Of a stretch of DNA of 64,000 nucleotides, positions 40,271 to 53,348 are shown piece after piece (the stretch's first letter is position 1; each line of letters starts with the position of its first letter). Source of the stretch: Trichodelitschia bisporula (Eukaryota); the NCBI GenBank assembly GCA_010356995.1, contig ML996689.1, positions 1,134,691 to 1,198,690 on the forward strand. Reading direction: 5' to 3'. A program made the position numbers and the translations under genes. The notes beneath the pieces were generated by a model that saw only the letters and a program-made list of their open reading frames with translations, had not been told where the DNA came from and did not search any database.

Positions 40271-41163
40271 TATCTACAAAAGGCTTCATATCACCCTGAG
40301 GAATTGCTCTATGGAGCAAAAAGTTAACCGTATGAGGAGGTAGACTCCCCTGGTTATGAAAACCGTCAGCTCCCACGGCCACCCAGATCTCTCCCCTGCA
40401 CACTCCAAACTTCCCCAAAAGAAGCCCACAGTACTTGATCACCATTTGCTTGCTGTTCTGCCAGCCACAGCTTTAAATCATTCAATATCACTTGAAAACC
40501 CGCGCCCACCATGGATGAGCCTGCATGTAAAATGCAATGACTTCAAGCCAAAGAAGATAAACTCGCTCAATGCCCATCAGCTTGCCTCTAGAACTACACC
40601 AGTACATCATGACCTCAGAAAATTGACTTATTACAAACACATCTCCAGTAGGTGACAATGTCCTAAAAGATCACACACGAACTCCGGTTCCTTCCAAGTT
40701 GGGACGAATGCACATGATGTAAGGCGTAGGGCTGAACCGCAGCCTGGTTGGCTGTTCGCTTATGGTTAGCAAGCGAACTTCCGATCCAACCCCACCCGCC
40801 CCACTCCGGGCGGCGGGTACCGAACTTGCAATTCTGGGCAGACTTCAATGCGCAAAGTGCCATGCATCTTATACTTCATTCCGGTCTTTCACGTTTGCCA
40901 GTCAAATCAACGGAGCTCTTATCTACAAGGCTTGAGCACCCGTAGATTAATCAATCTGCGGATATTTTCCCATGGCGATTTCAACTTAATACCTCCGCGC
41001 CACACAGTTGGTCTAATCGTTCCGTCTTGTTCAAATGCCATTACCATCAATTCCATCCGATAAATATGGCTAAAGTTAGGTCTCAGATCGTTCTTGAGCC
41101 ACTTGCATATATATGCCGTCTGTACTCGGACTGAGATCTCCGTTGATTCGCCCAGTGTTCAAC

Positions 41164-50975: not shown

Positions 50976-52553
50976 CTAGTAAGCGGGCTCCGGCGCGGGT
51001 GCCTTCTTCGCAACAGGATCAGTAGGTGCAACAGGATCAGCATGGGGGGCGCTGGGGAAGTCGGTCGGCTTGACGGTACCAGTCTTCTGGCGCGCTGTGC
51101 CGATGTAGTCCTGGGCAACCTTCGAGTATTCGCTAGCGTAAGTGCGTACCGACTCAGTAGCCCGACCCGTGTGCTGAGCAGCGAGATCTTTGACCTGAGT
51201 TGCCTGTTGGTTGATGACATGGCCAGCGTTCTGAAGATGCGCATCAATCGCCTCCTTGTTCTGAAGGTAGATCAGAGGCGCAAGGTAGGCAGTGGATGTC
51301 GCAATCAGCGACAGGCCCCAGAGCGGAACCCACTTGACGAGCCAGTAGGAGATGAAGGAAGCGCAGAAGGCCTACAGGTTCGTGTCAGCGTGGGAATTGA
51401 ATTGAGCATGAAACATACCGCAGACGTGACCCAGACGTTCTCCACGAAAACAACACGCTGGAACTCGATGACAAAGAAGTTGATGAACTGCTCCGCATCG
51501 TCCAGGAAGCGCTCGAGAGACTCCTTCGGGATGACAAAGTACGTGCGAGGGCGCAGCTGCGTGGCCAGGCCACTGCCAAAGACAGTACGCCCAGCAATCT
51601 CCGCGGACGCAGTAACTGCGGCCATGTTAGCTCCCTAAATTATGCGTGCCTAGAATACGTACTACCCAGCACCAGATACAGAGCCTTGAAGATGTAGCGG
51701 ATGATGTTGAGGTAGCGGGCAGCAAAGATGAAGAGAACACTCAGGGCGAAGGAGATGGCGGTCGCGCGCGGGTTTTTCCACTGCTACTGTCAGATCACGA
51801 TTAAAACGGTCGTAACTGAATCTTACGCTGAGAAGCCGGTAGAACAGCGAGTGGTAGTCTAGATGCGCATCAGTGGGCGGTTTGTAGCACTATCGTGAGA
51901 CCTACGGGTCAACGGCTGGCCAGTGGCCGCCGGCTGCTCAGGAGTCCGACGCGAATCGGCGAGATCCTGAAACTCCGACGTCGTTTTCGCAGCCTGCGTC
52001 TTGACAGACTCGCCGACGGGGCCTATTATGATAATTAGATGCTGCAGCATTGCACGCGAAGGATGTCTGCGATTTGTAAGCTGCTGGCTGCAATGTGGAG
52101 TTTGTGCTGCGATAACCTACCTTACCGTTGGCGACAGTATCCGTCAGGTTCTGCGTCACCGGGTGGTTCTGGATATTCGTCATGGCTGCTGAAGCGGCTG
52201 CAATGGTGTGTTAATTCGGAGGGGTGATGTTGCGGCGATGGAGTGGAAAGATAAGGAAGCTAGCTCCTGGGTAAAACTGCAGGCAGACATGGCGCGTTAG
52301 CAGGGACTGGGCAACCAACGCCATCATCGTCACTCGGCGTTCCATTGGGAGGAGACCAACAAACCTTACTGTTGAACACGGTGTCCTTCGCCTTTTGGGC
52401 AGAGTTCGCAACAGAGTTCGCAACAGAGTCACGAGAGTGTCCGTTCATGTTGCTGTCGTTCACGTTGGTGCTGTGGTTATTGGACGGGGAGAACGGATCG
52501 ATGTCAGGGTAGGTCTGCTTCGGCAGTTCAACGTGGGGAGGAGCGTCCGACAT
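50976..52553 (-). CDS. rtnA: Reticulon-like protein (RtnA/Cwl1 type)
   Basis: PAATGQPLT|HYHSLFYRLLS|WKNPRAT, EQFINFFVIEFQRVVFVEN; multi-exon; first two intervening sequences 52198-52369 and 52023-52125 have stwintron structure; TAG at 50976. Confidence 0.9.
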
Positions 52554-53348
52554 GATCGGGGAACTTTGTTGGGGGAGAGGATGCAGTAGGTGAAGGACAA
52601 CTTCAAGAACGTGGAACGGATTTGGGGCGAATTGAAGATTTTCAGAGGTGAATGGGTTGGAGAGGAGTGAAAGGTACAGTGGATGGTCTGAGGTGATGCA
52701 ATTTTTTTGTTTTGTGGTCGTGTGCCTCGAAGCCTGTTTGCACCTGCTTGAAGCTGCTCCAAGGCTCGAAACGATGACGCTTTGCGCTACCCATGAACCC
52801 GCGTCGTCGTTGGCAACGGTGCCGCAGATTACGCAGGGGTTGGCAACACACAAACACGAGAACATCGGAAACGACTGCTCTTCGCATCTCGTCTCTTGAC
52901 ACTCAAAATTGGCTTTTACATTAAGATTCGCTGCATTTGTTTTTTGCCTGATAGCGCCTCAGATTCTATCTCGTGGTCGCAGTCGCGCATGCGAGCTGCG
53001 TTGCCCGGTCTGGTCGCCAAATATTCCAATTGAGAGCCACGGCTTGCATGTGATCGGTGACGCAAGAGAAGGGGGCAAGCCCCACCATCCAAACTTGCGG
53101 ATTTGCGACGGAACAAGTTTGCGATGCGTCTTTTTCTTCTGCATTCTACGGAGGTACATGCTCAGATGGCCACGCAATACAGCAGTGCTACAGTACTATC
53201 AATGTTCTACTCTAGTGTTGTAACTCCAATCAAGATGCTCAAAATTCTCCTGCTTTGCAAAGCAGTATGTTTGCGCCCTTAACAGCAGTCCCCACCCAGA
53301 CGACAGCCAAAGATGAAGGAAACAAGTCCGAAGGCCATTTGCTTCAAC

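Follow-up and report, generated by a model that had tools for sequence, protein, structure and literature searches.

A further member of the published double-stwintron arrangement: paired [D5,6] stwintrons around a 72-nt exon II in the reticulon-like gene rtnA of Trichodelitschia bisporula

Introduction

When two successive introns of one gene both open with the heptanucleotide GTAAGGT and enclose an exon of only 72 nt, are they two ordinary introns, two nested ones, or two copies of a single unit? The question is raised by the reticulon-like gene rtnA on the minus strand of a 64,000-nt stretch of DNA (hereafter the window, meaning the whole stretch that was analysed) from Trichodelitschia bisporula, a member of the Dothideomycetes, order Phaeotrichales. 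The nested class at issue is the [D5,6] stwintron, in which an internal U2 intron lies within the donor of an external one and, with its own donor, parts nucleotide 5 from nucleotide 6 (GUNNG/GU..., the slash marking the split). Besides this donor, the internal intron must possess a branch element and an acceptor and be at least about 42 nt long, and its removal yields a canonical external donor and a functional external intron. A [D5,6] stwintron in rtnA (AN5404) has been described across nearly all Pezizomycotina (Kavalecz et al., 2019, Sci Rep 9:9940; PMC6616335), and a second one at position 2 of the same gene was predicted in many Dothideomycetes, Xylonomycetes and Lecanoromycetes (PMC6616335). 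In Helminthosporium solani both stwintrons have been shown experimentally, with the mRNA deposited as MK410464 and the intermediates as MK410465 and MK410466 (PMC6616335). The rtnA stwintron is also mentioned in passing in the available parts of PMC9024468 and PMC8469720.

The first-pass annotation of this DNA had asked whether the doubled form was already reported, and the answer is that it is published (PMC6616335). The observation is thus correct and ordinary: its kind was rightly read, and T. bisporula is an unlisted member of an arrangement already in print. The supplement of PMC6616335 contains 0 matches to Trichodelitschia, and the genome of T. bisporula is mentioned in the available part of the 2020 '101 Dothideomycetes genomes' paper. 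Below we set out the gene and its product, the anatomy of the two units, the transcript contigs, the published relatives and those found in metagenomes, and then weigh the route by which the two introns may be removed and the origin of the second one.

Data and scope

Transcript evidence was taken from two public runs of one sample and one study (X1 and X2), which are presumed to be RNA runs; their contigs (Logan) are spliced, and the analysis used these contigs rather than the raw reads. The seven-exon gene model was picked by testing exon combinations, and the contig joints confirmed the chosen one. To find relatives, we scanned metagenome contigs with an alignment of 20 orthologues, which gave a working set of 80 loci. 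The published exon II lengths given below derive from the coordinates in Table S1 of PMC6616335, of which the first 60 of 145 Dothideomycetes matches, every Lecanoromycetes and Xylonomycetes row, and named genera were covered. Throughout the text we use window coordinates and read the gene on the minus strand; the features are collected in Table 1.

Table 1. Features of the rtnA locus in window coordinates, with the evidence for each; a slash marks the split of a stwintron donor.
Feature	Coordinates	Strand	Evidence
rtnA (reticulon-like) coding region, ATG to stop; 7 exons, 6 introns, 371-aa model	50976..52553	minus	spliced contigs show all six junctions
Exon 1, 184 nt from ATG, end KDTVFN + A (phase 1)	52370..52553	minus	junction 52370^52197 in X1 and X2 contigs
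Stwintron 1, [D5,6], 172 nt outer, starts GTAAG/GTTTGT	52198..52369	minus	contig joint spans 172 nt, GT..AG ends
Stwintron 1 internal intron, 88 nt, GTTTGT ... GCTAAC ... GCAG	52277..52364	minus	sequence; X1 contig ends at both borders
Exon II, 72 nt, 24 codons, TASAAMTNIQNHPVTQNLTDTVAN	52126..52197	minus	retained in main mRNA contig
Stwintron 2, [D5,6], 103 nt outer, starts GTAAG/GTAGGT	52023..52125	minus	X1 joint spans 103 nt; X2 loose ends fit same junction
Stwintron 2 internal intron, 54 nt, GTAGGT ... GCTTAC ... GCAG	52067..52120	minus	sequence only
Exon 3, 117 nt, first residues GPVGESVK	51906..52022	minus	exon model and contigs
Exons 4, 5, 6	51858-51827, 51780-51663, 51615-51419	minus	contig joints and exon model
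Canonical introns 3-6	51905-51859, 51826-51781, 51662-51616, 51418-51372	minus	contig joints, GT..AG ends
Exon 7, end of reticulon domain, C-terminal tail and stop codon	50976..51371	minus	exon model, PF02453, contigs

The gene and its product

The gene is rtnA, a reticulon-like gene of the AN5404 type, of a Dothideomycete. The Pfam Reticulon domain (PF02453) matches exons 5, 6 and 7 (E = 8.9e-08, 3.1e-06 and 1.5e-08, respectively), and a search with exon 7 retrieved a public protein of 336 aa, 'cell lysis protein-like protein [Trichodelitschia bisporula]' (P0001), that is 100% identical; domain and identity together bear out the original assignment to a reticulon gene. Aligned with 19 orthologues, the locus has the features of an AN5404 orthologue, namely the reticulon domain, a stwintron as the first of six introns and an N-terminal disordered region. 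With A. nidulans AN5404 (rtnA) itself it has in common the seven exons, the six intron positions, the phase-1 [D5,6] stwintron in first place and the DNA for a disordered N-terminus, whereas in A. nidulans position 2 is occupied by a standard intron and exon II measures 24 nt (PMC6616335).

The public model P0001 corresponds to the 371-aa model from Met 36 on, exon II included. It begins at this internal methionine (MNGHSRD), and an in-frame ATG upstream at 52553 gives MSDAPPHVELPKQ... (52553-52449, minus strand). The N-terminus read from that ATG (MSDAPP) resembles the N-termini of orthologues (MSDEAPHV.., MSDAPPQI..), and because the upstream in-frame start matches them, P0001 looks to be truncated by 35 residues. 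Oddities are also seen in public models of orthologues: P0018, P0026 and P0030 carry insertions of 20-25 residues exactly past the end of exon II (e.g., ...TVSN/GKMYYS..., the slash marking the exon end; alignment columns about 139-162), and P0026 has a further insertion past the end of exon 1. Such insertions are as expected of gene predictors that read into stwintrons or mis-split them. Odd insertions at stwintron sites and a late start in P0001 therefore indicate that gene predictors mishandle nested introns, and gene prediction at such introns is the practical point of this locus, its significance beyond annotation being small.

Exon 1 contains a direct repeat, GTTGCGAACTCT GTTGCGAACTCT (52430-52401, minus strand), which encodes SVANSVAN, that is, more copies of the D-[ST]-V-x-N type. 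This repeat adds motif copies to those at the ends of exons 1 and II, so that the disordered N-terminus is built of short repeats.

Anatomy of the two stwintrons

Exon 1 closes with ...GTGTTCAAC A at 52370 (minus strand), and both outer introns are phase 1, as is exon II on both of its sides; an in-frame ATG lies inside exon II. The [D5,6] anatomy can be read directly and in full at both units: each has a split donor, a complete internal intron and a rebuilt external donor and intron. In unit 1 the inner branch site GCTAAC sits 19 nt ahead of GCAG, and removal of the inner intron rebuilds the donor GTAAG/T at the head of an 84-nt external intron with ATTAAC and a GCAG that ends at 52198. In unit 2 the same operation rebuilds GTAAG/A and leaves a 49-nt external intron with TCTAAT and a TAG that ends at 52023. 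The first-pass annotation had placed both units and the 72-nt exon II, with their signals, exactly, base for base on the minus strand; its exon ends, DTVFN and DTVAN, stand as well, and the full anatomy of both units upholds the [D5,6] class that it gave them.

Two of the inner signals deviate from the fungal consensus quoted in PMC6616335 (donor GURWGH, branch site DYURAY). Inner donor 1, GTTTGT, has U at +3, and in inner branch site 2, GCTTAC, a U takes the place of the expected R. The heptanucleotide GTAAGGT occurs twice in the window, both strands counted, and the two copies are the two stwintron donors; since shuffles expect 3.27 copies, the count is not enriched, and it is the placement at two successive donors that is notable. 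That the two units are more than a chance coincidence rests on their conservation in relatives.

Transcript contigs

The joints in the contigs span 47, 47, 46, 47, 103 and 172 nt with GT..AG on the gene strand, and these are the six introns at their outer borders. The final junctions of both units (52370^52197 and 52126^52022) and the inclusion of exon II in the main contig are thus seen directly in spliced contigs, and within intron 2, as within the inner stretch of intron 1, the contig cover consists only of joints. The outer joints of both units are present; joints of the inner introns (52365^52276 and 52121^52066) and joints that would skip exon II (52370^52022 and 52365^52066) are not listed in the contigs of X1 and X2, from which rare forms drop out.

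Two short contigs of X1 end at the borders of the unit 1 inner intron. One of them, record 2, is 111 nt long at a depth of 437. It spans 52168-52278, which takes in the start of exon II together with a part of the unit 1 external intron, and its end at 52278 is exactly the AG common to the inner acceptor and GTAAG. The other, record 3, is 35 nt long at a depth of 69; it spans 52399-52365 and breaks off exactly behind GTAAG. In a 31-mer graph, unspliced and inner-spliced forms would part at these ends, which give a weak hint of the unit 1 intermediate, with the reservation that the depths of the two records differ six-fold, for which a simple intermediate does not account.

Published relatives of the arrangement

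What defines the published double-stwintron arrangement is found in T. bisporula: a second [D5,6] stwintron at position 2, in phase 1, after a short exon II. By the coordinates of the Table S1 entries covered, exon II is 72 nt long in H. solani, Alternaria, Bipolaris, Ascochyta, Venturia, Hysterium and Rhytidhysteron as well as in Verruconis, Coniosporium, Cenococcum, Corynespora, Xylona, Lasallia and Umbilicaria, and 60 nt long in Botryosphaeria, Diplodia, Macrophomina, Clohesyomyces and Gyalolechia (PMC6616335). The likeness to H. solani extends to the same gene and class, with [D5,6] stwintrons at positions 1 and 2 that are both phase 1, to the exon II of 72 nt (Table S1 40630-40701) and to exon ends of the same motif type (KDSLFQ/ and KSNIAN/). 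The two species differ in that the outer donors of H. solani are GTGAG and its second stwintron measures 290 nt, as against 103 nt in T. bisporula; moreover, both intermediates of H. solani have been cloned, whereas those of T. bisporula we infer.

Relatives in metagenomes

Position 2 is not in one state throughout the relatives. A GTNNG/GT donor is present there in 14 of the 80 metagenome loci (L015, L020, L033, L038, L042, L048, L049, L051, L055, L062, L063, L064, L066 and L079), some of which are near-identical to one another. A standard donor is found in four of the 80 (L025, L044, L057 and L078), and in a further 10/80 the position is intronless, with exon II fused to exon 3 (L018, L019, L065, L030, L031, L054 and L071-L074); the rest consist mostly of spliced RNA-like contigs and of loci without the anchor motif. 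That position 2 is not always a stwintron among relatives is a point against the reading that we prefer below.

The first-pass annotation had asked for GTAAG/GT at both positions in orthologues, and a GTNNG/GT donor at both is indeed carried by 11 of the 80 loci (that is, by 11 of the 14 with such a donor at position 2), a 72-nt exon II being possible in 11/11. The inner branch site and acceptor at position 2 were found by script in 13 of the 14, the one miss (L020) being due to a mis-set exon-3 start; the inner introns of these second units measure 49-65 nt and the external ones 43-58 nt. An RNA contig (L007) that is 100% identical to the genomic locus L020 joins at the outer borders of both units and has a 72-nt exon II. 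In this set the conservation of the two-unit arrangement in relatives is observed directly.

One environmental, RNA-like and Pleosporales-like contig (L013) has introns 1, 3, 4, 5 and 6 removed and keeps 48 nt at position 2 (L013:277-324; GTGAG/A...CTGAC...CAG). In length and make-up these 48 nt correspond to what an external intron would be once its inner intron is gone, and they fall within the 43-58 nt of the external introns in relatives; the contig could be a candidate intermediate of stwintron 2, or it could reflect plain retention of an ordinary 48-nt intron.

T. bisporula extends the published range of the double rtnA stwintron by one order, the Phaeotrichales, and the metagenome loci add uncultured relatives with three states of position 2: stwintron, standard intron and no intron. 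These additions support the published view that the rtnA stwintron is the oldest and most stable stwintron known.

Splicing route

We consider it very probable that T. bisporula carries the published pair of [D5,6] stwintrons at rtnA positions 1 and 2, on either side of a 72-nt exon II, and that each is removed by two consecutive U2 reactions with exon II kept. In the route that we propose, the internal introns (52364-52277 and 52120-52067) would be excised first, by ordinary U2 splicing, which would convert the poor outer donor GUAAG/G into GUAAG/U in unit 1 and GUAAG/A in unit 2; the external introns (84 nt and 49 nt) would then be excised. The two units would act independently, under intron definition and with the inner intron first; the normal product retains exon II, which encodes part of a disordered N-terminal region of short D-[ST]-V-x-N-type repeats. 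We infer this two-step order for T. bisporula from three sources: the anatomy, the relatives and the experiments published for H. solani.

The alternative is that the spliceosome excises two long introns of the ordinary kind, each in a single step from its GTAAGG donor, the inner GT, branch site and AG being present but idle in T. bisporula. Fungal spliceosomes can remove introns of 172 and 103 nt, the outer joints are the only ones listed in the contigs of X1 and X2, and inner donor 1 and inner branch site 2 are off consensus, all of which would suit a one-step removal. It would leave a G at donor +6, which falls outside the fungal consensus GURWGH (PMC6616335), and it sits poorly with relatives that keep the inner donor, branch site and acceptor at both sites, with the intermediates of both units shown experimentally in H. 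solani (PMC6616335) and with X1 contig ends that coincide exactly with the borders of the unit 1 inner intron. One-step removal is, in our judgement, very unlikely.

Origin of the second stwintron and exon skipping

The first-pass annotation had gone further and held that unit 2 is a tandem duplicate of an 'exon end + stwintron' unit, and that joining inner donor 1 (52364) to inner acceptor 2 (52067) rebuilds GTAAG/A and so skips exon II in frame by a four-step route. Much in the layout invites this reading: both phase-1 introns directly follow the Asn codon of a common K/T-D-T-V-x-N motif, both units are of the same rare [D5,6] type, and the last 19 exon bases are 12/19 identical, a score of at least 12 being reached by only 5 of 1098 other coding 19-mers. 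The claim of duplication finds no support in the sequences compared. Inner compared with inner intron, external with external, whole unit with whole unit and the last 72 nt of exon 1 with exon II are all without likeness, the local alignment scores lying at or below the shuffle means and at least 292 of 500 shuffles reaching the observed score in every comparison; a recent duplication of 'exon end + stwintron' is thus unsupported. The exon-end likeness is real, but judging by the coding sequence it belongs to a D-[ST]-V-x-N peptide motif present in several copies. The motif also occurs within exon 1, at DSVAN and SVAN, without an intron, and because it recurs there the likeness of the exon ends may stem from the repeated peptide; two of the five other 19-mers with at least 12/19 matches fall at these very repeats. 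In orthologues a K-[DEN]-[TS]-[VI]-x-[NS] motif is kept at both exon ends. The published origin of [D] stwintrons, as given in the available part of PMC7138796, is moreover a different one, a donor duplication inside an existing intron, and some inner donors among the relatives resemble copies of the outer five bases and fit that model (GTAAG/GTAAGC in L062, GTGAG/GTAAGT in L042). In the accessible parts of PMC6616335, PMC7138796, PMC9024468, PMC8469720 and the stwintron literature searched we found no statement of unit duplication as the origin of the second stwintron.

For the skipping itself, a 72-nt exon II would keep the frame if it were left out, and an analogous route, in which an alternative inner 3′ site is used and an extended external intron is then removed, is published for A. 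niger and N. crassa (PMC6616335). The architecture of T. bisporula would permit the same, an extended external intron swallowing exon II; the two cases part in that the downstream intron of A. niger and N. crassa is standard and their skipped mRNAs have been found, whereas in T. bisporula a second stwintron lies downstream and the X1 and X2 contigs, which drop rare forms, list no skipped form. The four-step route thus stays a conjecture of the first reading. All 45 metagenome or metatranscriptome contigs with a continuous N-terminal frame were examined: exon II is retained in those of Pleosporales-like type, and none of the 45 could be matched, as an exon-skipped form, to a locus with both units. 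No description of exon skipping from one stwintron to another was found in the accessible part of the stwintron literature searched. Four consecutive U2 reactions at the corresponding place in rtnA are also published for the 'dual intervening sequence' of the Onygenales (PMC6616335). In that case a 'second order' intron encloses the stwintron together with intron 2, and exon II goes out with it, whereas T. bisporula has two independent stwintrons and retains exon II. Taken as a whole, tandem duplication with in-frame skipping by the four-step route is in our view unlikely. An ancient duplication of the 'exon end + stwintron' module is possible; that the units are ancient copies of a 'D-T-V-x-N motif + [D5,6] stwintron' module which still cross-talk (52364 to 52067, giving GUAAG/A) and yield a regulated isoform without the 24 residues of exon II strikes us as quite unlikely. 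We keep to two independently acting stwintrons with exon II retained as the preferred reading.

Further observations

In X1 a contig of 2186 nt starts exactly where exon 1 ends and extends >1.8 kb upstream of the ATG, and one of X2 (2037 nt) ends at 52565; these contigs point to a 5′ leader of great length, to a neighbouring transcript that overlaps the gene, or to the presence of DNA in the run.

Position 1 in the uncultured relatives keeps a donor of the [D5,6] type, including the forms GTCAG/GT and GTTAG/GT. Within the unit 1 external intron, the 5′ part directly behind the inner acceptor has a stretch, CTTATCTGC...TCGCACA, that is common to the Pleosporales-like loci L020, L042, L048, L051 and L066 and to the H. 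solani intermediate; at the corresponding site the window has CCTTATCT (52256-52249). The lichen-type loci L030, L054, L071 and L078 share another external-intron stretch, GCTCGCGTGAC. Conserved stretches of this kind are unusual for intron sequence.
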